NCBI GenBank assembly: GCA_030430245.1
Contig: JAUIFY010000004.1
Span: 1-58,283, forward strand
Length of the DNA: 58,283 bases
Direction of reading: 5' to 3'
Source of the DNA: a bacterium
GTDB lineage: Bacteria > Desulfobacterota > Binatia > UBA12015
How positions within the stretch are numbered: position 1 is the first letter of the stretch; each line of letters begins with the position of its first letter. The notes beneath the pieces are model-generated. The model was given only the letters and a program-made list of their open reading frames with translations, was not told the origin of the DNA and did not search any database. Position numbers and translations under genes: made by a program. Below are positions 20,304-37,290 of this stretch, piece after piece.

Positions 20304-20341
20304 GGGGACGTTCGTTACCTTTTCGCGAGTGTTACCTTTTT
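20304..20341 (+). repeat. Left inverted repeat
   Basis: ggggacgttcgttaccttttc (20304-20324) + gcgag + tgttaccttttt. Confidence 0.92.
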
Positions 20342-21208
20342 CGCTCCGCCGTCCTCCCGCTCTCCGGGATCGACCGAAGCGAGGTAGCGGTGGACCTGAA
20401 CTCGGCTCACACCAAGAAAGCGTGCCACGGCGGCCGGCCGAACTCCCAGCTCCCGAACCGCCGCCACCGCCAAGCGACGGCGCCCGGCGGCCACGCGTCG
20501 GACGCGTCCGCGGGTGGTCAAACTTCCCCGAGCCAGCGCAAGCTCGCCTTCGACCCGGGCCGCCAGTTCCTCGAGATCGAGTGACGGCGAGCTCGGCGAT
20601 TCCGCGATGATCGGCGGAGGCACGGAGGCTTCCCGGGCACGCTCTTCTTCCTCCTCCAGAATCGACGCATCGTGGCCGTCGTCCCCGTCGGCGAAGAACC
20701 TTCGCGCCTGGCCAGCGCCCCCCAGCTCCCGGATGGCAACGTCCCCCGCCGACCAGGCCGGCGGGCGCGACCCCACGAACCAGTGATGCGAAGAATGGGC
20801 GTACGCAGCCGCATGCGAGACCATCCCTGCTCGGACAGGGTTCTCGTGAACGTACCGAACCAGGTGGACCAGATAGCGGAGAGATGCGCATTCCCTCGAC
20901 CAGAACCGATTCTGAAACAGGTGCCCGCAGCGCCCGTGCCGTCGATTGAACCGAGAAGCATGGTCGCCGAGCAACCCCTTCAGCGCCGTTCCGAGACTCT
21001 CGCGACCTCTCAGCGCAACGAGGTGGACGTGGTTCGTCATCAGCACGTAGGCGATCAGTCGAAGACCATCGTGCATCGAAGCACGCACCATCCCCTTCAG
21101 GAACGAGAAGTGGTCGCGGCGGTCGAGGAAGATGTCCTGCCGATTCACCCCCCGGGCGACGAGATGATAGATGCGCCCTTCCTCATCACAACGCGGCCCC
21201 CGTGGCAC
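20315..21208 (-). CDS. REP-associated tyrosine transposase (RAYT/TnpA-REP-like) with C-terminal HTH
   Basis: PRGPR...IYHLVARGVNRQDIF; AYVLMTNHVHL (HUH); GHLFQNRF; RYVHENPVRAG (catalytic Tyr, NPxxAG); C-terminal DnaA_C-like HTH (AAVARFLGVSRVQVHRYL). Stop codon lies inside the left repeat. Confidence 0.9.
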   Translation of the reverse strand: MPRGPRCDEEGRIYHLVARGVNRQDIFLDRRDHFSFLKGMVRASMHDGLRLIAYVLMTNHVHLVALRGRESLGTALKGLLGDHASRFNRRHGRCGHLFQNRFWSRECASLRYLVHLVRYVHENPVRAGMVSHAAAYAHSSHHWFVGSRPPAWSAGDVAIRELGGAGQARRFFADGDDGHDASILEEEEERAREASVPPPIIAESPSSPSLDLEELAARVEGELALARGSLTTRGRVRRVAAGRRRLAVAAVRELGVRPAAVARFLGVSRVQVHRYLASVDPGEREDGGAKKVTLAKR

Positions 21209-21289
21209 GACCAAGCAAGGTAGGAGACACTCCCGAGGCAGGATAGCGTGGAGGGAATGCGCTACGGCGCATGGCGAGCCTCGGCTGGG

Positions 21290-21328
21290 GAAAAGGTAAC
21301 AGTTGGAGAAAAGGTAACGAACGTCCCC
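21290..21328 (-). repeat. Right inverted repeat
   Basis: gaaaaggtaaca-gttgga-gaaaaggtaacgaacgtcccc; 21308-21328 is the exact reverse complement of 20304-20324. Confidence 0.92.
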
Positions 21329-21900
21329 TAGGAGGCCAGGGTGCGGAGGTGGAAGAGGGCGGCGCTGATCTCGTTGAGGATCAGGCTGCCGATTTGGAGG
21401 ATCTCGTCGGTGCCGGGGATGCGCGCATAGAGGCCGGCGCCGCTGGTCGTGCGGTCGCCGATCTCGAGGGTGATCTGCTCGTCCGACGCGAGGGTCAGGT
21501 CGATGCGGACCTTCGGGGCGTCGAGACCGAACTCGGCGAGGGAGCCTTCGTGGACGAAGCGGCTCACCTCCGGGAGTGCGGCGACGTCGCGCACGAGGGC
21601 GCCGACCTCCTCGTCGACCCTCCCCTGGTCCGGGGGTGTCGCGGCCGCCGATCCGGTCCGCGCGGCGTCCAGGTCCAACGCCTCGACGCGCCAGTGCTCC
21701 CCATCCCGCCGGGCGCGAAGCGATCCCTGCCACGTACGGACGGCGATCGAGGTCACGTCGTCCGCCGAGAACGAGAACACCGACTCGACCTCGCTGGGCG
21801 GCGGCGGGGGCGGAGGCTGCAAGCCGACGGCGATCCACGTCGCGCCCGCCGACGCGAGGATCACCGCGAGCGAGACCAGGCTGCGTACGAGAGGAGACAC
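21328..21900 (-). CDS. DUF4340 family protein
   Basis: N-terminal TM; LAEFGLDAPKVRIDL...LEIGDRTT...YAR pattern; usual last gene of GldAFG-like operons. Confidence 0.75.
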   Translation of the reverse strand: MSPLVRSLVSLAVILASAGATWIAVGLQPPPPPPPSEVESVFSFSADDVTSIAVRTWQGSLRARRDGEHWRVEALDLDAARTGSAAATPPDQGRVDEEVGALVRDVAALPEVSRFVHEGSLAEFGLDAPKVRIDLTLASDEQITLEIGDRTTSGAGLYARIPGTDEILQIGSLILNEISAALFHLRTLAS

Positions 21901-21913
21901 GGCGTGCGAGCCC

Positions 21914-23266
21914 TCAGCGCCGCCGCCGACGCCGGATCACCACCCCGACGCCGATCACCAGCACCAGCGCCGGCTGCACGATCACCACCGCCCAGAAGAT
22001 CGTCCGTGCCAAGCTCTCCGAGACGAACACCGGCGAGAGCGGGCCGAGACCCGCCGTGTCCGGGCGAACCCGGGCGCCGGTCGCCTCGCGCTCCGTGAGC
22101 CATCCGAGCACGTTCACGAGCAGATCCTTGTTGCCGAGCAGGGTGACGAAGTTGTCGCTCGCGAAATCCGCGTCGCCGATCACGACGAGGCGACCGCCCT
22201 CGCCGCCGGACGAAACACCAATCACTCCGACGGGGCCGGGACGATCCGTCCGCGCATCGAACTCGACCTCGCCCCGACGCGTCCGCTCCGCACCCAGCGC
22301 GACGAAACTCTCGGGAGCGGAGCGCGCGACGATCTGGATCGCCGCGTCGGGCGTCCCCGCGCTTCCGTCGGCCGTCTCGACCGACCGACCACGGCCCAGC
22401 ACGGCCGGCGCCTTCAGCGCCGCCGAGACCGGGTGGGACTCGCGAAAGATCGGCACCAGCACGTTCGTCCCATCGCTTCCGTAGACGCGGTTCGAGCGGT
22501 CGATGACCACGTCGTCGGCGAGCACGAGGCCGTGCGTCGCGATCCAGGCCTCCAGATGCGGCAGCTCGATCGGGTCCGCGAGAACGAGCACCGATCCCCC
22601 GCCCTGAAGGTACGCCTCGAGCATCGCGAGCTCCCGCTCGGCGTAGTCGGCCTCGGGCCCGGCCAGAATGACCGCCGCCGCATCCTCCGGCACGCTCGTC
22701 GTTCGGAGAAGCGACAGAGGCAGTACGTCGTACCCCTCGGCGCGAAGGAACTGGGCCGCCCGTCCGAGCTGGTCCGCGTGGCCGACACGCGTCGTTCGCT
22801 CGCCGTGATCGCCGACGAAGTACAGCACCGGGCGTCGCGCCCGCAGAATCTCGGCGATGCCACCGACCAGCGCTTCCTCCGTCCCCGAAGGCGTGACGAG
22901 TTCCCGCTCCTCGTAGAACAGAACCGCTCGATCGAAGCGCCTCACGCCGTTCTGCCTGGCGCGGAGCGGATTGCGATCGATGTCGATCAGCTCGTAGTGC
23001 ACCTTTGGAGATTCGTTCGCGAGCAGCTCCAGCAGATCGCGCGCCCGCATGCGCTCGCCCCGGCGATAGTAGAAGTCGATCTGCAGCGGCGACGTGAGCT
23101 GCCGCAGCACCGACGAGCTGTATTCGGAGAGCGAGAGCCGTCCCTGCAGGGTCAAATCGAGCTGCTCGCGCCACACCTCCGAGAACGCCTGGACCGCGAC
23201 GGCCACCGACAGGACGGCGCCCATCGACAGCAGAAAGGCCGTCCAGTGCCCCGCCGCCCGCCTCAC
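21914..23266 (-). CDS. GldG-like ABC transporter auxiliary component
   Basis: LDLT...SLSEYS; YFVGDHGE; VILAGP; RLVVIGDADFASD...GNKDLLVNVLGWL; C-terminal TM plus RRRRR; GTGA overlap. Confidence 0.85.
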   Translation of the reverse strand: MRRAAGHWTAFLLSMGAVLSVAVAVQAFSEVWREQLDLTLQGRLSLSEYSSSVLRQLTSPLQIDFYYRRGERMRARDLLELLANESPKVHYELIDIDRNPLRARQNGVRRFDRAVLFYEERELVTPSGTEEALVGGIAEILRARRPVLYFVGDHGERTTRVGHADQLGRAAQFLRAEGYDVLPLSLLRTTSVPEDAAAVILAGPEADYAERELAMLEAYLQGGGSVLVLADPIELPHLEAWIATHGLVLADDVVIDRSNRVYGSDGTNVLVPIFRESHPVSAALKAPAVLGRGRSVETADGSAGTPDAAIQIVARSAPESFVALGAERTRRGEVEFDARTDRPGPVGVIGVSSGGEGGRLVVIGDADFASDNFVTLLGNKDLLVNVLGWLTEREATGARVRPDTAGLGPLSPVFVSESLARTIFWAVVIVQPALVLVIGVGVVIRRRRRR

Positions 23267-24000
23267 TTGACGCCCCTCCACCGTCGCGACCCGAGACACT
23301 GGACCGTCCACGCGAGAAACACCGCGCAGAACAGGACGAGGTAGGTCACGTCGGCCGTATCGATCCCTCCGCGCACGAAGGTGTAGAGACGATCGAAGAG
23401 AGAGAGCTGACTCAGCACCCACAACACCGGCGCTCCGACCGCGGCCTCGTTCCACGTCAGAACCCAGAAGAGCAGGAGCACACTGTACGTGACCGCCGCG
23501 GCGAGCACCTGGCTCTCGGTCAGCGCCGAGATCAGGATCCCGCACGACAGAAATGCGGCGCCCAGGAGAAACAGCCCGAGGTAGCCGGCCGCCATCGCCC
23601 CCACCGGCAGCGTGACGTCCGCGGGCAGGAGAAGAAGTGGCTGGATCAACGTGCCGCCGAGCATCAGCGCCAGCACGAGCAGCGCCGCGACGTACTTCCC
23701 GAGGACGATCTCGACGTCGCGCAGCGGGTACGTCCACATCAGCTCCAGCGTCCCCAGTCGCCGCTCCTCCGCGAAGAGCCGCATCGTGAGGAGAGGCAGG
23801 AGCGTCAGCATGTACTGGCGCATGTCGAGGAACTGGTACTGCCACAGGCCACGGGTCAGATCGAAGCCGCCCGACAGAAGAAAGAACGAGAGGTTCGAGT
23901 AGAAGTAGAAGCCCGAGACCGCGAGGAAGAGCGCGATCACCATGTACGCGAGCAAGCTCGTAAAATACGAGACGAGCTCCTTGCGAACGACCGCAGTCAC
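23263..24000 (-). CDS. GldF-like ABC-2 permease
   Basis: RKELVSYFTS; PLLTMRLFAEERRLGTLEL; IVLGKY; ISALTESQ. Confidence 0.9.
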   Translation of the reverse strand: MTAVVRKELVSYFTSLLAYMVIALFLAVSGFYFYSNLSFFLLSGGFDLTRGLWQYQFLDMRQYMLTLLPLLTMRLFAEERRLGTLELMWTYPLRDVEIVLGKYVAALLVLALMLGGTLIQPLLLLPADVTLPVGAMAAGYLGLFLLGAAFLSCGILISALTESQVLAAAVTYSVLLLFWVLTWNEAAVGAPVLWVLSQLSLFDRLYTFVRGGIDTADVTYLVLFCAVFLAWTVQCLGSRRWRGVK

Positions 24001-24947
24001 GCGCGGCGCTCCGAATCGCGCGCGATGCGCTGCGCCGGTTCGCGCACCAGACGGAGAAAGATGTCCTCCAGCGTGAGCGCTTCGCGGTGGAGCTCGAGCA
24101 ACACCCAACCCTGCTCGGTCACCCTCCGCGATACGCGTTCGATCGCGCTCTCGTCGGCTACGATGAGTCGCACCCGGTCATCGACCTCTTCGGCTCGTTC
24201 GACCCCGTCGACTCCGGCGAGAGTGGAGCAGAGGGCGGTGGGGTCGACGTCCGCACGTACCCAGAGCGGCAACGCCCCCGCGAGTCGCTCCGCGAGCCCG
24301 GCCGGACTGTCCTCGGCGACCAACCGGCCGCGATCGACGATCACCACCCGCTGGGCGACGAGGCTCACCTCCGAGAGGATGTGGCTCGAGAAGACGATCG
24401 TGCGCTCTCCGCGAAGGCTCTTCACGAGCTCCCGGATCTCCGTCACCTGCCCCGGATCGAGGCCCGAGGTCGGCTCGTCCAGTACCAGGACTTGCGGATC
24501 TCCGAGCAGCGCCTGCGCGAGACCGACCCGTTGCCGGTACCCCTTGCTGAGCTTCCCCACCAGGCGCCGCCGAACCTCGCCCAACCCGCACGCGCCGATC
24601 GCCTTCTCGACGTGAGGCGCCCGTTCTCCGGAAGGGACGCGCTTCGCCCGCGCCACGAAGCCGAGATACCCCTCGACGCTCATCTCGGGGTAGAAGGGCG
24701 CGTTCTCGGGGAAGTACCCGAGCGTCCGCCGCGCAGCGTTCGGGTCCCGGCTCACGTCGTGCCCGCCGACCCGGACGACACCGGTCGTCGGAGGGAAGAT
24801 CCCAGCGACGACCCGCATCGTCGTCGTCTTCCCGGCTCCGTTCGGACCGAGAAACCCGACGCACTCGCCGGCAGCCACCGAGAACGAAACGTCGTCGACC
24901 GCGACGAAGTCGCCGAACCGCTTGGTGAGGTGAGACACTTCGATCAT
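23997..24947 (-). CDS. GldA-like ABC transporter ATP-binding protein
   Basis: GPNGAGKTT Walker A; LSKGYRQRVGLA signature; LDEPT Walker B; SSH H-loop. Confidence 0.95.
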   Translation of the reverse strand: MIEVSHLTKRFGDFVAVDDVSFSVAAGECVGFLGPNGAGKTTTMRVVAGIFPPTTGVVRVGGHDVSRDPNAARRTLGYFPENAPFYPEMSVEGYLGFVARAKRVPSGERAPHVEKAIGACGLGEVRRRLVGKLSKGYRQRVGLAQALLGDPQVLVLDEPTSGLDPGQVTEIRELVKSLRGERTIVFSSHILSEVSLVAQRVVIVDRGRLVAEDSPAGLAERLAGALPLWVRADVDPTALCSTLAGVDGVERAEEVDDRVRLIVADESAIERVSRRVTEQGWVLLELHREALTLEDIFLRLVREPAQRIARDSERRA

Positions 24948-25017: not shown

Positions 25018-27933
25018 TCAACCTCTCGGCGCGAAGAGGTCCTCGCCGACGTCGAGCCGTGCCTCCGCCGCCTCCGGACTCGCCGCCTCGCTCTCGAGGA
25101 CGAGCGTGCTCCGGTCGGCCTCGACCCGCGCGTGGATCCACCCGCCGTCCTCCAGCTGCAAACGGATCCCGTCCAGGGACACGTGCGACACGACCGTCGC
25201 GTCCCCCACCCGGTCCGGCGCGCTCTCGAGGCGCTCCGCCGCCTGGGAGTCGAGCCCTGCGGGGATCGCGATTCGACGCGACGCCCGTGCCGCGGGACCG
25301 AACTCGTGAAACACCTCCTCGAGCTGCGACGCGAGAGAGCGACGTCGGATCGCAATCATCTCGACCACGAGGAGCACCCCCAGGATCGCATCCGCGTGCG
25401 CGGCTCCTTCGACCGACGCGAACGCGCTTCCATCGATCGCGACGAACGCGTCGCCCCGAGCGAGAAGCGCTCCCAGCTCCTGAAACCCCGTCGGCGCCTC
25501 GACGACCCGCAGGCCACGCCGACGCGCGAGCGCGTCGACCAACCGCGAGGTGGCGATCGAACGCGCCACGGCGCGTTGCCGGGCCCCACGCGTTTCGGCG
25601 AGATGGTCCACCAGAAGAGCGGAGACGTGGTCGGGCGCGAGAAGCACCCCGCCCCGGCCTACGACTCCGAGCCTCGTGCCGCTCGGATCCACCGCCACAC
25701 CGAGATCGTGTCCGTCGCGCACCGCGACCGAGAGCGCCACGAGACCGTCGGCCGCCGGGTCCGGAGCGCCGCCTCCGAAGCGGGGATCGCGATCGCCGTG
25801 GAGCACCTCCCCGAGCACACCCCAATCCCGGAGCAGTCGTTCGAGCGTCCCCGTGGCCGCACCCCAGCGCAGATCGCAGGCGACCCGAAGGCCGCTCGAG
25901 CGGATCGCGTCCGCATCGACGACCGCCTCGAGCACGTCGCGATGGATCGCCGCCGGATTCGTTCCTCGTCGCAAGCCGATCTCCCGCGCCTCGACGCCTC
26001 CGAGCTCCTGCGGACCGAGCGCGCGGTCGACCCACGGCGCACTCCGCTCCCCCACGAGAACCGCGGACTCACGGTCCAGCGGCGCCCCCGTCGCTCCGAG
26101 AAGATGAAGCCCGTTCCACCGCGCGTCCGCGGACTCGCCGCTCACCACGACCGCGCCCGCGAGCCCTTCCGCGACGACGGCGCACGCCGCAGCAGGCAGC
26201 GCGACCGGCTCGCCGGCCCACGTGACCGAGACGTCGTTCCACGCCAACACGCCCGCGACGAACGACGCGAAGTCGGCACCGAGAAGGCGCGTGTCGTGGG
26301 CGACGAGGATTCCCCGCTGTGCCAGCGCCGAAGCGGGGTCCGCCTCGAAGAGATACTCCGCGAGCCCCTGCGCGGCCGCACGCACCTTCTGCACCGTGAA
26401 ATCCTCGGCGACGCGGCCGTGCCATCGCGCATCGGCGAGGGGTACGCCACCGCTCGCGAGACGGGGGCGGTGCGCGAGGCGGCGGTAGATCTGCAGGTAG
26501 CGCGCGGCCGCATGCCGCCACGAGTGGTCCCGTCGCATGCCCCTGCCCTGCAGCCCGCGCCAGAGGTCCGGCACGCGATACGCGTCGATTGCGCGGTCGA
26601 CCGCATCGCACAGCGCCTCCCTCGAGTGATCCTCGATCCAGAAGCCCGTGCCCCGATCCGGAACGGCGCCGATGTCCAACACCGTGTCGACCATCCCGCC
26701 GCTCGCGCGCACGATCGGAACCGTGCCGTATCGCTGCGCCCGCATCGGCATCGTCGGGCCCGCCTCGTACGCGTGGGGCCGAAGCAGCACGTCCGCTCCC
26801 GCCAGCGTCTTGTGGACGAGCCCCTCGGTCGGCTCCGGCGCCAGCACGATCTCGCGCCCGGAGGACTCCATGAGCTCACGGAGCGAGCTCGCGATGCGCG
26901 ACTCTCCGCGACCGACGACGACGACTCTCAAGCCCCGCTCCAGAAGATCCGGCAGCGACGGGACGAGAATGTCGAAGCCCGACGCGGGGACGAGCGGGGC
27001 GAGCACGGCTGCGACCGGCGCCGCGAGCTCCGCGTTGAGGTCGGTCTCCAACAAGAGATCGGCCTTGCAGCGTCGCTTGCCGTGAACGTCGTCCGCCGCG
27101 AAGCCTGCCACCAGGTGGCGATCGGTCGCCGGATCCCAGACTTCGGTGTCGATGCCACTCGAAATCCCGGTCACGTCCCCCGAACGTTCCGTGAACACGA
27201 CATCGAGCCCCGCACCGTACTCCGGCAGCTGAACGTCCCGAGCGCTGCGCGGACTCGGAGTCGTGATCGCGTCGGCACGACGCAGCCCCTCGCGAAGCAC
27301 ATTGAACGTGCCATGGGCTTCGATGCTCCCGCTCGCAACCGCCCCCCGCGGGATGCCGGCAGCAGCGAGATCCGGGGAAGGGAACGCGCCCTGCGCGGAG
27401 ATGTCGTGCACCGAGAGGACGACCGCGGCGTCGGCGAGCATGGCCCGGGCCGCGGTCGCGCGGTCCTCCCCCAGCATCCCGGCACGGAGGTAGACGGGCA
27501 CGAGAGCCGTCGGCCAATCGTGGCAGTGAAGGACGTCCGGCACGATCGCCAGCGCGTCGACGGCTCCGAGCGCCGCCCGACAAAAGAACGCGAAGCGCCG
27601 AACGCCGTCGGCGTACTCGACCCCGTCCTCTCCGTACAGGCCCGGACGATCGAAGTAGCGATCGGCGCCGATCGCGTAGACCTCGACCCCGGGCGGTTCC
27701 TCACGAGCGCGAAGAACGTCGCCGGTCTCTCTTCCGTCGTGCATCCGAACCGGAATCGGAGCGATCTCCGGGACGGGCAGGAAGCGATCGCGCAACACGC
27801 GGTGGAGAGGCAAGACGACCGTGACCCGGTGTCCCCGCTCGGCCAGCGCCCGAGGCAGAGCCCCGACCACCCCCGCGGCCGCCCCGGCACCACAATACGG
27901 CGCCGCCTCGGAGGCGATCATGACGATGCGCAC
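25018..27933 (-). CDS. Glycogen synthase-like / phosphoglucomutase-like fusion, both domains with degenerate active sites
   Basis: N-terminal half (about 490 aa) has the GlgA scaffold (FDRPGLYG, RFAFF, HCHDW, GID..WDPATD, RYGTVPIVR.SGG..DTV). C-terminal half has the alpha-D-phosphohexomutase scaffold (EDFT...VR, HDTR, WNG, DP.FGG..PDP, PTGF, LDG..L). Catalytic motifs are replaced; see findings. Confidence 0.88.
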   Translation of the reverse strand: MRIVMIASEAAPYCGAGAAAGVVGALPRALAERGHRVTVVLPLHRVLRDRFLPVPEIAPIPVRMHDGRETGDVLRAREEPPGVEVYAIGADRYFDRPGLYGEDGVEYADGVRRFAFFCRAALGAVDALAIVPDVLHCHDWPTALVPVYLRAGMLGEDRATAARAMLADAAVVLSVHDISAQGAFPSPDLAAAGIPRGAVASGSIEAHGTFNVLREGLRRADAITTPSPRSARDVQLPEYGAGLDVVFTERSGDVTGISSGIDTEVWDPATDRHLVAGFAADDVHGKRRCKADLLLETDLNAELAAPVAAVLAPLVPASGFDILVPSLPDLLERGLRVVVVGRGESRIASSLRELMESSGREIVLAPEPTEGLVHKTLAGADVLLRPHAYEAGPTMPMRAQRYGTVPIVRASGGMVDTVLDIGAVPDRGTGFWIEDHSREALCDAVDRAIDAYRVPDLWRGLQGRGMRRDHSWRHAAARYLQIYRRLAHRPRLASGGVPLADARWHGRVAEDFTVQKVRAAAQGLAEYLFEADPASALAQRGILVAHDTRLLGADFASFVAGVLAWNDVSVTWAGEPVALPAAACAVVAEGLAGAVVVSGESADARWNGLHLLGATGAPLDRESAVLVGERSAPWVDRALGPQELGGVEAREIGLRRGTNPAAIHRDVLEAVVDADAIRSSGLRVACDLRWGAATGTLERLLRDWGVLGEVLHGDRDPRFGGGAPDPAADGLVALSVAVRDGHDLGVAVDPSGTRLGVVGRGGVLLAPDHVSALLVDHLAETRGARQRAVARSIATSRLVDALARRRGLRVVEAPTGFQELGALLARGDAFVAIDGSAFASVEGAAHADAILGVLLVVEMIAIRRRSLASQLEEVFHEFGPAARASRRIAIPAGLDSQAAERLESAPDRVGDATVVSHVSLDGIRLQLEDGGWIHARVEADRSTLVLESEAASPEAAEARLDVGEDLFAPRG

Positions 27934-27948
27934 GACGCCTCCCCGCAG

Positions 27949-28956
27949 CTACGGTTCGCGAAAGACGTCCGGATTGGCGAGGAAGCGGGGGCGCTTCCCT
28001 TCCAGCCACGCCTCGATGCAGTCGCACAGGGTCGCGCTTTGGTGTGTGACCACGTCGAGCGACGCACCACCGATGTGCGGCGTCGCGATGACGTTCGGCA
28101 GCTGGACGAAGCGATCGTCCGGCTGCACCGGCTCCTTCCAGAACACGTCGAAGGCCGCCGCCCGGATCCGACCCGACGCGCACGCCTCGTAGAGAGGATC
28201 CTCTTCGACGCTCGCCGCACGCCCCGTGTTCACGAAGTACACGCCGTCTTTGAAGAGTCCGATCTCGCGCGCTCCGATCATCCCCTTCGTCTCCGGGATG
28301 TCGGGCACGTGGACCGTGAGGAAGTCGGCCTCGGAGAGAACCGTGTCGAGGTCGGCCTTCTCGGCGCCGATCTCGTCATAGACCGCGTCGGGCACCAACG
28401 GATCGTAGGCGAGAATGCGCGACCCGAAGGGGCGGACGCGTTGCGCGACGCGCTGCCCGATCGCACCGAACCCCACGATGCCGACGTTGCGACCGAAGAG
28501 CTCGACCCCGGTCATCGACTCGTACATCTTCAGGTAGTCTCCGGCGTTGTCGAACTGCTCTCGCTTGCCCTTCACGAACGAGATGGCCGGGTAGACGTTG
28601 CGTGCGATCATGATCATGAAGCACAGGGTGAGATCCGCGACGGCCTCGGCATTGCGCCCGGGCGTGTAGAAGACCGGGATCCCGAGCCGGGTCGCGGCCT
28701 CCACGTCGACGTTCACGGGGGCGCCGCGACAGGCTCCGATCATCTTCAGATCGCAGCTCTCGAGAACCTCTTTCTGCACGAAATCGGCTTCGACGATGAG
28801 GACGTCGCAGCCCTCCTCGCGGATGCGCCTCGAGAACGTGTCGGCGTCGAAGAAGATGTTCTTCGTCACCTTCCAGTCCTCGACGTGCACGTCCATGTGA
28901 CGCTTCAGACGAGCGAGGTTCCGTTCGTCGATCGACGCGGTGACGAATGCCTTCAC
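27949..28956 (-). CDS. D-isomer-specific 2-hydroxyacid dehydrogenase (SerA-like)
   Basis: PGRNAEAVAD; GIVGFGAIG; YDP; VNTGRA; FDVFWKEP; TPHIGG. GTGA overlap with TetR. Confidence 0.9.
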   Translation of the reverse strand: MKAFVTASIDERNLARLKRHMDVHVEDWKVTKNIFFDADTFSRRIREEGCDVLIVEADFVQKEVLESCDLKMIGACRGAPVNVDVEAATRLGIPVFYTPGRNAEAVADLTLCFMIMIARNVYPAISFVKGKREQFDNAGDYLKMYESMTGVELFGRNVGIVGFGAIGQRVAQRVRPFGSRILAYDPLVPDAVYDEIGAEKADLDTVLSEADFLTVHVPDIPETKGMIGAREIGLFKDGVYFVNTGRAASVEEDPLYEACASGRIRAAAFDVFWKEPVQPDDRFVQLPNVIATPHIGGASLDVVTHQSATLCDCIEAWLEGKRPRFLANPDVFREP

Positions 28957-29597
28957 GCAACCCCCATGAGCTTCTCGACGAGCGCGATCGTTTGCTTGCG
29001 CAGACGCGCCCGCCGCTTGGGCTCCCGGAGTGGTCCGCCGAGCATCATGGAGACGTGCGGTGTGTCGAGCATCGAGACGAGAAGGGTCGATTGAACCGAG
29101 AGCAACAGGAACGAGATGTCCTGCGCCGAGATCTCGTTCCCGGAGAACTCGCGCGCCCACTCCTGGAACACCTTCCACGAGGGGCCGAGCGCGGACGAGA
29201 CCGCGGCGTCGTCCAGGTCGGGCGCCTCGATCAACCGGCGAAGAAGCAACTTGGGGATCGTCGGGTCGTCCGCGAAGGCGTCGAAGATGACCCCCATCGT
29301 GCGGTCGATCAAAGCGCGGGCCTCCTCGGGGCTCTCGGGCCGCGCGATCTGATCCTGCACGAGTGCGACGAGTTGGTGATGGATGTGCGCGAAGATGCCG
29401 CGGTAGAGCGTCTCCTTCGAATCCCAGTGGTAGTGGAGACTCGAGATGTTCACCTCGGCGCGGGCCGCGATCTCTCGGGTCGACGCGCCATCGAACCCGC
29501 GCTCGGCGAACACGTCCTGCGCCGCCTGAAGGATCCGATCCTTCGTGCTCTGGCGCGGCGCTCCCTCGCTCTCCTCGGTCTGTGGCTTCACGGGCAC
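28953..29597 (-). CDS. TetR/AcrR family transcriptional regulator
   Basis: TKDRILQAAQDVFAERGFDGASTREIAARAEVNISSLHYHWDSKETL; start uncertain (29591 or 29597). Confidence 0.92.
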   Translation of the reverse strand: MPVKPQTEESEGAPRQSTKDRILQAAQDVFAERGFDGASTREIAARAEVNISSLHYHWDSKETLYRGIFAHIHHQLVALVQDQIARPESPEEARALIDRTMGVIFDAFADDPTIPKLLLRRLIEAPDLDDAAVSSALGPSWKVFQEWAREFSGNEISAQDISFLLLSVQSTLLVSMLDTPHVSMMLGGPLREPKRRARLRKQTIALVEKLMGVA

Positions 29598-34935: not shown

Positions 34936-37290
34936 GTGACGCCGCGTTCGGTCCTACGCCTCGGAGCGGGCGTCGCGGTCCTCGCGGCCATCGCGGTGGC
35001 CGCGACCCGCGAGCCCGCCCCGCGCCCGCCCGCATCCTCGATCGAGCGCGTGGCACCGAACCTGAAGCGGCTGCACGCGACGGGGGTCGGGACCACACCG
35101 TTCTCCCTGGAGCCCCTCTTCCCGCAATGGACCTTCGACGAGGTGCTGTTCGCGACGCAGCCGGAGCCGGGCGGTCCCCTCTACGCGCTCGAGCAGAAGG
35201 GCGTGCTGTGGCAGATCGAGCCGGACGGCTCGGCGCGCGAACCGGCGCTCGATCTCCGGGCGCGGGTGTACTTCGAGCCCGGCAACGAGGCCGGTGCGGT
35301 CGGCGTCGCCGTTCGACCCGAGCGGGGCGACGCGTATCTCTTCTACGTCACGCTGCGCGAGGACACGATGTACGACCGCGTCTCGCGCTTCGCGCTGTCC
35401 GACGGTGGCATCGATCCCGACTCCGAAGAGATCCTGATCGAGCAGCTCCACGAGTGGCATCGCGCCCACCCCTTCGGCGAGCACTACGGCGGCGGCCTCG
35501 TCTTCGGACCGGACGGCCATCTCTACGTCGCCTTCGGCGACGAGGGCTGGGTCCCCGTCCGCGACAACGCGCAGCGCCTCGACAAGGACCTCTTCTCCGG
35601 AATCCTTCGCCTCGACGTCGATTGCACGCCGGGTGCGAGCCACCCCCCTCCGCGCGAGCCCGAATCGGGTACGACGTCCGGCTACTGCATCCCCGACGAC
35701 AATCCCTTCGTGGGAGAGCCGAACACCCTCGAGGAGTTCTACGCGATCGGGCTCCGCAATCCCTACCGCTTCTCCTTCGATCGCGAGACCGGAGCGATGT
35801 GGATCGGCGACGCGGGCTCCGACAAGTTCGAGGAGATCAACCTCGGCGTCCCCGGCGGCAACTACCAATGGAGCTATCGCGAAGGCGCGTCCCGCTACAC
35901 GGCGAGCGCACTGCGCGGAAACCGTCCGCGTCCACTGCGGGGCATGGAGCGGAGCCCGCTCTTCGCCTACCCGCACGGCAGCGGCAACGGGTGCGTCATC
36001 GGCGGACACGTCTACCGCGGCCGCGCGCACCCCGACCTGGTCGGCCGCTACGTCTTCGGCGACATCAACTCGGGCCGCATCTGGGCGCTCCTCACCGACG
36101 CGGACGGACAGGTCGTGGAGCTCGAGCAGATCGCGCAAGCCCCGCCCTACACGCTGCTCTCCTTCGGCGAGCTGGCCGATGGTGAGCTTCTCGTCATCGG
36201 CCGCCCGCCGCTCGGCCTCTCCCGCCTCGTCCCCACGGAACGTGGAGGCGAGACGCCGCGGCTCCTCTCCGAGACCGGACTGTTCTCGGACGTCGCGACG
36301 CTCACACCGGCGCCCGGCGTCTTCCCGTACGAGATCAACCTCCCGGCGTGGGCCGACGGCGCCACGTCGCGCTCCTGGATCGCGATCCCCGGCGACGGCT
36401 CGAACGAGGGCGGCGCCGCCAAGCGCGACCGCATCCTGTTCCGCCCGAACGGACCGTGGGGCTTCCCCGGCGGGTCGGTGTTCGTGCAGCACCTCGACCT
36501 CGCACTCGACCCGCGCCGACCCGGGGAGCGCACCCCGGTCGAGACGCGTGTCCTCGTCCTCACACGCGCGGGGGCCGCCCACCCGTTGTCCTACATCTGG
36601 AACGACGACGGGACCGACGCGACGCTGCAGACCGATGGCCGACCGATCGAGTTCGAGGCGATCCGCGCGGACGGCTCATCGGCCACGCGGCTCTGGAAGC
36701 CGCCGTCCCCGTCGGAGTGCCTGCGCTGCCACCACCTCGGCGTCGGACACGTCCTCGGCGTGAACGCACGTCAGTTGAAGCGCCGCGCGAGCGACTCGTC
36801 GGACGGGCCGGATCAGATTCGGGAGTGGGCCGCCTCACGCATGTTCACGAAGACGGATCTGCAGCTGCTCTCCGTCGAAGGGGCCGCGATCGACGCCGTG
36901 GCGCCCCTCGTGCCCCCGACCGCGACCGACGCGTCGCTCGAACGACGAGCGCGGTCCTACCTCGACGCGAACTGCGGCTCCTGCCACCACCCGACCAGCG
37001 GTCTCTTCGATCTTCAACGCCGGGCGTCGCTCGCTCCACTGCACGACCGGCCCGCGCGACACGACTTCGGCCACGAAGGCGCGCGCCTTCTCGTGCCGGG
37101 AGCGCCCGAGCGCTCGCTCCTCTACCTGCGTCTCGCGAGCGACGACCCGCGCGAGCAGATGCCGCCGGTCGGACGAACGATCCCGGACCCCGTCGGCGCC
37201 CGGCTGATCCACGACTACATCGCCGCGATGGAGCCGGCTCAATCCGAATCGGTCGCCGGCGACGACCCGGCCTCGTCGCCGGCGAGGTAG
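34936..37290 (+). CDS. Secreted PQQ-dependent sugar dehydrogenase (GSDH propeller) fused to a diheme c-type domain
   Basis: Signal peptide; HYGGGLVFGPDGHLYVAFGD; GILRLDV; IPDDNPF; GLRNPYRFSFD; LLSETGLF; two CxxCH motifs (CLRCH, CGSCH); QMPPVG. Confidence 0.85.
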   Translation: MTPRSVLRLGAGVAVLAAIAVAATREPAPRPPASSIERVAPNLKRLHATGVGTTPFSLEPLFPQWTFDEVLFATQPEPGGPLYALEQKGVLWQIEPDGSAREPALDLRARVYFEPGNEAGAVGVAVRPERGDAYLFYVTLREDTMYDRVSRFALSDGGIDPDSEEILIEQLHEWHRAHPFGEHYGGGLVFGPDGHLYVAFGDEGWVPVRDNAQRLDKDLFSGILRLDVDCTPGASHPPPREPESGTTSGYCIPDDNPFVGEPNTLEEFYAIGLRNPYRFSFDRETGAMWIGDAGSDKFEEINLGVPGGNYQWSYREGASRYTASALRGNRPRPLRGMERSPLFAYPHGSGNGCVIGGHVYRGRAHPDLVGRYVFGDINSGRIWALLTDADGQVVELEQIAQAPPYTLLSFGELADGELLVIGRPPLGLSRLVPTERGGETPRLLSETGLFSDVATLTPAPGVFPYEINLPAWADGATSRSWIAIPGDGSNEGGAAKRDRILFRPNGPWGFPGGSVFVQHLDLALDPRRPGERTPVETRVLVLTRAGAAHPLSYIWNDDGTDATLQTDGRPIEFEAIRADGSSATRLWKPPSPSECLRCHHLGVGHVLGVNARQLKRRASDSSDGPDQIREWAASRMFTKTDLQLLSVEGAAIDAVAPLVPPTATDASLERRARSYLDANCGSCHHPTSGLFDLQRRASLAPLHDRPARHDFGHEGARLLVPGAPERSLLYLRLASDDPREQMPPVGRTIPDPVGARLIHDYIAAMEPAQSESVAGDDPASSPAR

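Follow-up and report, generated by a model that had tools for sequence, protein, structure and literature searches.

A glycogen synthase–phosphoglucomutase fusion that lacks the catalytic motifs of both halves and is probably maintained by selection in a bacterium of the Binatia

Noncatalytic relatives are on record for both of the enzyme families treated here. Plant STARCH SYNTHASE 5 (SS5) is described, in a passage of PMC10801857 citing Abt et al. 2020, as a “noncanonical, nonenzymatic” starch synthase, and PMC7761743 describes vertebrate PGM5 (aciculin) as “an inactive enzyme with intact substrate binding.” Fusions of glycogen enzymes have also been described: the passages on such fusions in a 2024 Chem Rev review (PMC11046441) give GlgA-GlgB, GlgB-MalQ, and TreS-Mak, with no GlgA-PGM fusion among them. 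Here, we describe a 971-residue protein, P0001, in which a half related to the glycogen synthase GlgA is joined to a half related to the phosphohexomutases. It is encoded in a stretch of 58,283 nucleotides (the window; contig JAUIFY010000004.1, positions 1 to 58,283, of assembly GCA_030430245.1, GTDB lineage Desulfobacterota; Binatia; UBA12015), and the genome that contains it is called G000 below. Comparison of its sequence with those of its relatives suggests, with a probability that we put at about 0.6, that P0001 is a selection-maintained, noncatalytic descendant of a bifunctional glycogen-synthesis enzyme, a GlgA fused to a phosphoglucomutase (PGM).

Pseudoenzymes are usually recognized as single domains whose ancestors are missing. 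In this case both halves of a bifunctional enzyme appear to be dead and yet selected, and intact, half-dead, and fully dead orthologs found at one chromosomal site form a natural series from which one could read the order of dismantling, the residual constraint, and what a dead GT-B and mutase scaffold can do.

Predicted Fold and Lost Motifs of P0001

In the structure model, both folds are kept. AlphaFold2, given an alignment of 29 sequences (alignment A1), modeled the protein alone with a predicted local distance difference test (pLDDT) score of 85.3 and a predicted template modeling (pTM) score of 0.77. In Foldseek comparisons, the GlgA half aligned to Escherichia coli glycogen synthase (GS; 2qzs) with a template modeling (TM) score of 0.91 (range 0.86-0.91 over 1rzu and 2qzs) and the mutase half to the T. 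thermophilus mutase 1tuo with a TM score of 0.89. Disorder in the model is found at residues 14-17 and 601-604, which lie at or beside the degenerate loops and have pLDDT values below 50, in the linker (490-494), and at residues 101-106 and 717-727. Pfam searches matched Glyco_transf_5 to residues 2-247 (3.7e-55) and Glycos_transf_1 to residues 306-450, followed by PGM_PMM_I (504-623), PGM_PMM_II (665-758), and PGM_PMM_III (767-877), all above cut-off. PGM_PMM_IV had no match in the Pfam search of P0001, yet the model folds a C-terminal domain and the alignment over the whole mutase reaches the TM score given above. Among the NCBIfam profiles, TIGR02095 (glgA) scored 386.5 bits, with the cut-off at 328.45, and 389.1 bits when the genome was scanned, and the Arch_GlmM match spans residues 506-960. 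The open reading frame (ORF), the profiles, and the model thus bear out the original prediction, made from the DNA letters alone, of one uninterrupted 971-residue frame holding a full GlgA-like and a full phosphohexomutase-like fold.

The roles of the GlgA residues in ADP-glucose binding and catalysis, and those of the mutase motifs, are well established. Residue equivalences were taken from aligning P0001 with E. coli GS 2qzs and from the family alignments. In the GlgA half, K15, G18, R300, and K305 of E. coli GS correspond to Gly15, Ala18, Pro313, and Ser318. SRL..QKG reads APLVPASG, and PSRFEPCGL reads PHAYEAGPT, where Glu390 (E. coli E377) is retained and the PCGL that follows it has become AGPT. 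The equivalents of E. coli GS Asp137 and His161 are retained as well, and Glu390 is invariant in every row of the motif table described below in which the position is present. In the mutase half, FGTxG reads LADAR, the GEES sugar loop reads IDGS, and the RxSGTEP phosphate loop reads RVEADRS. The Mg loop retains its first Asp and its Arg only, two of the three Mg-binding Asp residues having become Ser and Thr; Asp749, Arg754, and Arg936 are retained in this half. The positions of the replaced loops are listed in Table 1.

All eight motif substitutions named in the original prediction, in the GlgA and the mutase half alike, were reproduced by the 2qzs and family alignments, and the motifs it had reported as kept (HCHDW, WDPATD, RYGTVPIVR, and HDTR) can be read in the translation. 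Its wider claim that both halves are without the residues that their families use for catalysis is likewise supported by the alignments. Judging from these replacements, catalysis is unlikely in either half of P0001: the synthase has lost, without re-fixation, its glycine loop and the Arg and Lys that bind phosphate, and the mutase is left with one of its three metal ligands and without a nucleophile in position 600.

The Fusion Family and the Order of Decay

A word-indexed protein search returned 39 proteins, 28 of which are full-length fusions of 965-995 aa that cover 96-100% of P0001 at 34-92% identity. A further two fusions and a fragment (P0042, P0043, and P0044) came from an exhaustive search of representatives clustered at 50% identity, whose other top matches were standalone GlgA or GlgA joined to other domains. 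Most of the 28 fusions are motif-intact and carry the automatic names “glycogen synthase GlgA” or “phosphoglucomutase,” and the consensus of alignment A1 is canonical throughout (RTGGL, SRL..QKG, PSRYEPCGL, FGTxGWR, TASHNP, DCDADR, GGEESGG, and RASGTEP). The architecture, which had been thought to be without precedent, is therefore present in the databases many times over. No paper on a GlgA-PGM fusion, dead or active, was found in literature searches that left supplementary files outside their scope, and the intact fusion itself appears to be undescribed in the searchable literature.

When 301 genomes sampled from the class were surveyed, the fusion turned up in at least 15, which belong to two families, f1 and f7. 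This survey was a profile search at E 1e-150 in which fusions were recognised by a match extending beyond profile position 500, with 27 weaker matches unlisted; three of the 301 genomes are flagged unpublished, and none of these three carries the fusion. In f1, the window's own family, 10 of the 20 species representatives carry it. Scans of genome and metagenome contigs mostly gave standalone GlgA; they yielded a single relative dead in both halves, L106, which is the gene of genome G002, and two clade B fusions, L186 and L187. The closest DNA obtained was 63% identical, the 92%-identical P0003 being represented by its protein sequence only.

A few observations on other relatives were made along the way. 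Clade B fusions (P0008-P0013, P0015, G013, L186, and L187) keep the phospho-serine and the three Asp residues, with the His of TASHNP changed to Asn and the Arg after the Mg loop changed to Ser or Gly. A tblastn match at 30% identity to residues 1-955 of the query was found in L175, a record labelled “uncultured Aestuariivirga sp.”; it may be a fusion from an alphaproteobacterial metagenome-assembled genome, and no clean ORF was recovered from it. Other long GlgA fusions (P0032-P0035, P0073, P0082, P0122, P0125, and P0126) include proteins of ~1600 aa with an alpha-amylase domain (PF00128) N-terminal to GlgA and proteins of 1024-1135 aa in which GlgA is C-terminal.

The intact fusions give an indication of the ancestral state. 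Proteins such as P0018-P0030 and those of G033, G298, and G158 are 965-1000 aa long, share the domain order of P0001, and are 34-36% identical to it over the full length. In G033, an f7 genome in which all the motifs are intact, the fusion lies directly upstream of a GlgC-type nucleotidyltransferase gene (NTP_transferase and LbH_GLGC domains), which is followed by a GH57/DUF3536 gene. The glgC-like gene, 77-78% identical, is directly downstream of the fusion also in G298, G158, and G262, which makes four of the four f7 loci with a readable downstream flank. Judged by its gene content, the f7 locus is a compact glycogen operon with mutase and synthase in one protein. The three activities would make up a coherent operon, with glucose-1-phosphate formed by the mutase, activated by GlgC, and polymerised by GlgA. 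Most likely, therefore, the fusion was ancestrally a true bifunctional enzyme of glycogen synthesis.

To follow the motifs through the family, 22 key positions were tabulated in 48 rows, comprising database proteins and genes cut from genomes, with some near-duplicates and five partial rows. Canonical residues at all positions present were found in 22 rows. Ten rows keep Ser600 and the three Asp residues but have His601 changed to Asn and Arg754 to Ser or Gly. In eight rows the GlgA half is intact and the mutase half dead (G004, G006, G007, G010, G016, P0022, P0042, and P0043), and in a further eight neither half is intact (G000, the window's own gene, G002, P0003-P0007, and the C-terminal fragment P0044, all dead in both halves). 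The K/R-T-G-G-L loop is absent or variable in all both-dead rows that have the region and reads x-TGG-L in the others, and position 600 is E, A, or G across the both-dead clade. A D-x-S-x-T/C-R loop is common to all both-dead members and to G004, where it reads D-x-S-x-C-R.

A maximum likelihood tree of 41 rows (LG+G4, quick search, SH-aLRT support, fragment P0044 left out) placed the both-dead rows in one clade (n=7, support 100). Their sister is G004, which belongs to the window's genus and has an intact GlgA half, and the two together are nested in a 14-row clade in which every mutase is dead (support 100). A second, independent mutase death is seen in G006, inside an otherwise Ser-bearing clade. 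The mutase half has thus died at least twice; two long PGM-dead branches meet in the tree, so the count within the 14-row clade is uncertain. Where G013 (L018), a congener 80% identical to it, has TASNNPY and DCDADS, the G006 protein (L017) has TAGNEPG and DAGAEG, and this mutase death is apparently recent.

The f1 orthologs occupy a single syntenic site, where they occur in three states: both halves intact, PGM dead, and both dead. The order at this site is lipid-A acyltransferase, TetR, D-2-hydroxyacid dehydrogenase, fusion, ABC ATPase, ABC-2 permease, and GldG-like gene. By tblastn, it is held wholly or partly at 10 of 12 loci (G002, G004, G006, G008, G010, G011, G013, G016, and two metagenome contigs); at the remaining two, G007 has the outer genes only and G033 has none.

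Read from the tree and the motif table, the order of decay is intact, then mutase dead, then both dead, and the loss of the synthase half maps to a single event in the common ancestor of at least seven proteins, the window's among them. The original prediction had reasoned that intact motifs in close relatives would speak for recent decay. Such a relative does exist, since G004 keeps an intact GlgA half. Recent decay, however, was not borne out: the intact motifs of close relatives reflect an old, stepwise, and clade-wide loss.

Selection on the Fusion and Competing Explanations

Selection was estimated from G000 and G002, a single pair in which both fusions are dead in both halves, the entire path between them lying inside the both-dead clade. 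Over 852 aligned codons, NG86 gave a nonsynonymous divergence (dN) of 0.282, a synonymous divergence (dS) of 1.136, and a ratio of the two (omega) of 0.248 (bootstrap 95% confidence interval 0.207-0.293), and there were no internal gaps. Taken apart, the GlgA and mutase halves had omega values of 0.225 and 0.266, and YN00 gave 0.138 for the mutase half. The p-distances at codon positions 1, 2, and 3 were 0.257, 0.208, and 0.526. In substitution-only neutral simulations run to the observed nucleotide distance, none of 1000 frames stayed open, the mean number of stops being 10.8. The low omega, the lack of indels, and the outcome of the simulations suggest a noncatalytic protein under selection and not a fresh pseudogene, in agreement with the original prediction, which had noted the intact frame and proposed a dN/dS well below 1 as a test.

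The alignment columns tell which parts of the protein are still held. In the GlgA half, intact fusions have 142 columns with a conservation of 95% or more; in the both-dead clade, 93 of them have the same residue, 42 are variable, and seven are newly fixed. The corresponding numbers for 163 mutase columns are 71, 66, and 26, and the newly fixed mutase residues include R505H, K610H, Y664H, Y777H, D751S, and D753T.

The following history can be read from these data. The ancestral fusion survives intact in relatives and, in the window's family, the gene occupies a fixed chromosomal site. The mutase half was the first to decay, its phospho-serine and its Mg, sugar, and phosphate loops being lost; later, and once, the synthase half lost its nucleotide-sugar phosphate-binding residues in the both-dead ancestor. 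Purifying selection has held both folds, the length, and the reading frame from then on, and we infer that the protein now works as a binding protein without turnover. The leading candidate for the binding site is the mutase cleft, which has been remodelled: the residues that replaced the catalytic ones there, His505, His610, Asp749, Ser751, Thr/Cys753, Arg754, Asp834, and Arg936, are conserved in all both-dead rows. This putative pocket, which has neither a nucleophile nor a metal site, could in principle still accommodate an anionic molecule, a sugar phosphate for instance. The dead GT-B half might serve as a structural or partner-binding module. One may go further and propose that the rebuilt His/Arg-lined pocket is the receptor of a phosphorylated metabolite and governs a partner by way of the GT-B clamshell, or else that it is a new active site of the phospho-histidine type. 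We regard this as speculative and rather unlikely; if true, an entire bacterial two-enzyme fusion would have been turned into a protein of signalling or of new catalysis, with all intermediates extant at one syntenic locus.

Several points weigh against a selected, noncatalytic protein. The omega value is approximate and comes from one both-dead pair with dS near saturation and strong codon bias, although these last two would, if anything, lead to an overestimate. The “newly fixed” residues are drawn from seven related sequences, and shared ancestry could explain them in part. The fusion is dispensable in some lineages: besides being carried by only half of the family genomes, it is cleanly missing, with the dehydrogenase and ABC ATPase genes adjacent to each other, in all three non-carriers inspected (G001, of the same genus, G005, and G015). 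Finally, constraint on the both-dead fusion is relaxed, as it evolves two to five times faster than its neighbors. For the both-dead pair G000/G002, the fusion dN given above compares with 0.056-0.141 for three flanking genes; for G016/G010, where the mutase half is dead, 0.242 compares with 0.149-0.176; and for G011/G008, where both halves are intact, 0.207 compares with 0.161-0.245. The ratio of fusion dN to neighbor dN is therefore ~1 in the intact, ~1.5 in the PGM-dead, and ~2-5 in the both-dead state.

This growth of dN with the number of dead halves, the repeated death of the mutase, and the absence of the fusion from 10 of the 20 family genomes would also be expected of a functionless relic heading for loss, a redundant fusion with both sites decayed and an ORF not yet broken. 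High G+C moreover eases the keeping of long open frames, as an antisense ORF of 1320 aa (see below) illustrates. We consider a relic unlikely nonetheless. The proteins of the clade that shares the dead state have no more than 57-63% identity to the window protein, P0003 excepted at 92%, and all six full-length both-dead proteins measure 970-973 aa. An omega of 0.25 with an upper confidence limit of 0.29, 852 codons free of indels, the strongest conservation at second codon positions, and 0 of 1000 neutral simulations remaining open point in the same direction.

A slightly less probable alternative is that one or both halves have rebuilt their sites for a different reaction, for example, through the newly fixed histidines of the cleft. 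The 26 intact-conserved mutase columns that were re-fixed in the both-dead clade, with four new His residues and the D-x-S-x-T-R loop among them, would fit such a new enzyme, as would the invariance of Glu390, the equivalent of E. coli GS Glu377, wherever the position is present. Position 600, however, offers no conserved phosphorylatable Ser or Thr, being E, A, or G, and two of the three metal ligands are gone. The catalytic loops of the GlgA half are variable within the clade (42 variable against seven newly fixed columns), and His176 is not conserved there.

The original prediction had proposed that the protein might be a noncatalytic regulator or scaffold of active glycogen synthase and phosphoglucomutase. 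Separate intact genes do exist in G000, as it had suggested should be checked: a glgC-glgA-glgX cluster lies on contig C174 (locus L001, 1..4377) together with glgP (C174:9323-11443), glgB lies on contig C214, and three of four other phosphohexomutase genes have canonical motifs. The standalone GlgA on C174 has QTGGL for KTGGL and keeps R..QKG and PSRFEPCGL. Plant SS5 provides a precedent for a dead relative that works in glucan metabolism (PMC10801857, in the passage cited above). The idea is nevertheless weakened, and we find it doubtful, as a both-dead carrier of the same genus, G002 (92% complete), was searched for GlgA, GlgC, GlgB, and glycogen phosphorylase (GlgP), and none was found. 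The fusion in the window's family is also not adjacent to glg genes. In addition, the G000 GlgC is only 46-53% identical to every matched relative's GlgC (48% to that of G004, of the same genus), so the C174 cluster, whose G+C equals that of the window, may be a late horizontal acquisition or a binning contaminant and may not be the old partner of the fusion.

That the gene is an artefact, produced by misassembly at the junction or by chance in DNA rich in G+C, can practically be dismissed: the G000 assembly is fragmented (445 contigs, 87.5% complete) and spurious long ORFs abound, but the same junction is present in at least 15 of the 301 genomes and in 28 database proteins, the fusion recurs at the syntenic site in nine further family genomes and in two metagenome contigs, the hidden Markov model matches to both families are strong, and the structure model is confident on both sides of the junction.

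The Locus and Its Comparison with Known Systems

Table 1. Positions of the fusion gene, its parts, and neighboring genes (window coordinates unless another locus is named).
Feature	Position	Strand	Remarks
GlgA–phosphohexomutase fusion ORF, P0001	25018..27933	-	971 aa plus stop; GTG start
GlgA-like half (GT5, GT-B fold), residues 1-490	26464..27933	-	Pfam, TIGR02095, Foldseek
GAGAA replacing KTGGL, residues 15-19	27877..27891	-	low-confidence loop in model
PLVPAS replacing RLxxQK, residues 313-318	26980..26997	-	Pro and Ser at the positions of E. coli GS R300 and K305
Phosphohexomutase-like half, residues 496-971	25021..26448	-	four domains folded in model; Pfam, Arch_GlmM, Foldseek
SGESAD replacing TASHNP, residues 598-603	26125..26142	-	phospho-Ser position is Glu600
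DPSGTR replacing Mg loop DxDxDR, residues 749-754	25672..25689	-	
GGGGAGG, Shine-Dalgarno-like run	27938..27944	-	4 nt before GTG start, 4 nt past TAG of upstream gene; read directly
D-2-hydroxyacid dehydrogenase gene, directly upstream of fusion	27949..29178	-	ORF as listed; domain begins near residue 79
ABC transporter ATPase gene, directly downstream of fusion	23997..24947	-	ATG at 24947; start ~70 nt past fusion
ABC-2 permease gene, after ABC ATPase	23263..24108		
GldG-like auxiliary protein gene, after permease	21914..23845		
Fusion–glgC-like–GH57 locus of G033	L272 7962..14737		related loci L291, L292, L300

The arrangement of the fusion and its flanking genes looks like an operon (Table 1). 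The G+C of the window is 66-72%, and many overlapping open frames surround the fusion ORF. An antisense ORF of 1320 aa (25132..29094, + strand) was rejected as a gene: its translation is Arg-rich nonsense without a family match, in DNA of ~70% G+C, and it is therefore taken as an artefact. Just downstream of the GldG-like gene, a 507-aa ORF (20315..21838, - strand) has weak matches to an IS200-like Y1 transposase (E 6.8e-06) and to HTH_23. Elsewhere in the window, a glucose/sorbosone dehydrogenase domain and a cytochrome c domain of the planctomycete type (PSCyt1) occur together in a 784-aa protein (34936..37290, + strand).

Annotation pipelines will call the fusion gene “glycogen synthase GlgA,” because the TIGR02095 cut-off is passed. 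A metabolic reconstruction built on that name would credit these bacteria with glycogen synthesis in error; G002, in which the search for other glycogen genes gave none, is an example. The case thus bears on the correct annotation of glycogen metabolism in uncultured bacteria of the window's group, as well as on the evolution of pseudoenzymes.

By homology and fold, P0001 belongs to the GT5 GlgA family and to the alpha-D-phosphohexomutases, and it lacks the catalytic features of the active enzymes of either. With GlgA (GT5; E. coli GS 2qzs; TIGR02095), it shares the GT-B fold of two Rossmann domains, a score above the family cut-off, and the equivalents of Asp137, His161, and Glu377. It differs from GlgA in having Gly, Ala, Pro, and Ser for K15, G18, R300, and K305, in the lost EPCGL context, in being fused to a mutase, and in lying outside a glg operon. 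With the alpha-D-phosphohexomutases (PGM/PMM/GlmM; 1tuo and P. horikoshii 1wqa), it has in common Pfam domains I-III, above cut-off, and Asp749, Arg754, and Arg936, and its model aligns to whole mutases, whereas Pfam domain IV gives no match, the phospho-Ser is Glu, two Mg-binding Asp residues are Ser and Thr, GEES is IDGS, and SGTEP is EADRS. The family defined by alignment A1, that of the GlgA–PGM fusions, is the one in which P0001 finds its place by domain order, full-length homology, and orthologous position. Unlike P0001, the intact members of this family have every catalytic motif and, in G033, G298, G158, and G262, the glgC-like gene downstream.

Among proteins that have lost catalysis, SS5 is similar in being a GT5 relative of starch and glycogen synthases that acts without it. 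SS5 is, however, eukaryotic and takes part in starch granule initiation with partner proteins, and nothing ties P0001 to glucan granules. PGM5 offers a phosphohexomutase fold without enzyme activity, a state that is predicted for P0001 from its sequence. In contrast to P0001, PGM5 keeps most of its active-site residues, is eukaryotic, and is associated with the cytoskeleton, whereas in P0001 nearly all of the motifs are replaced and the mutase is fused to a dead glycosyltransferase. P0001 is thus the product of a real gene with an unusual history that falls within known kinds, the pseudoenzymes and the GlgA and PGM families, and does not make a new category.

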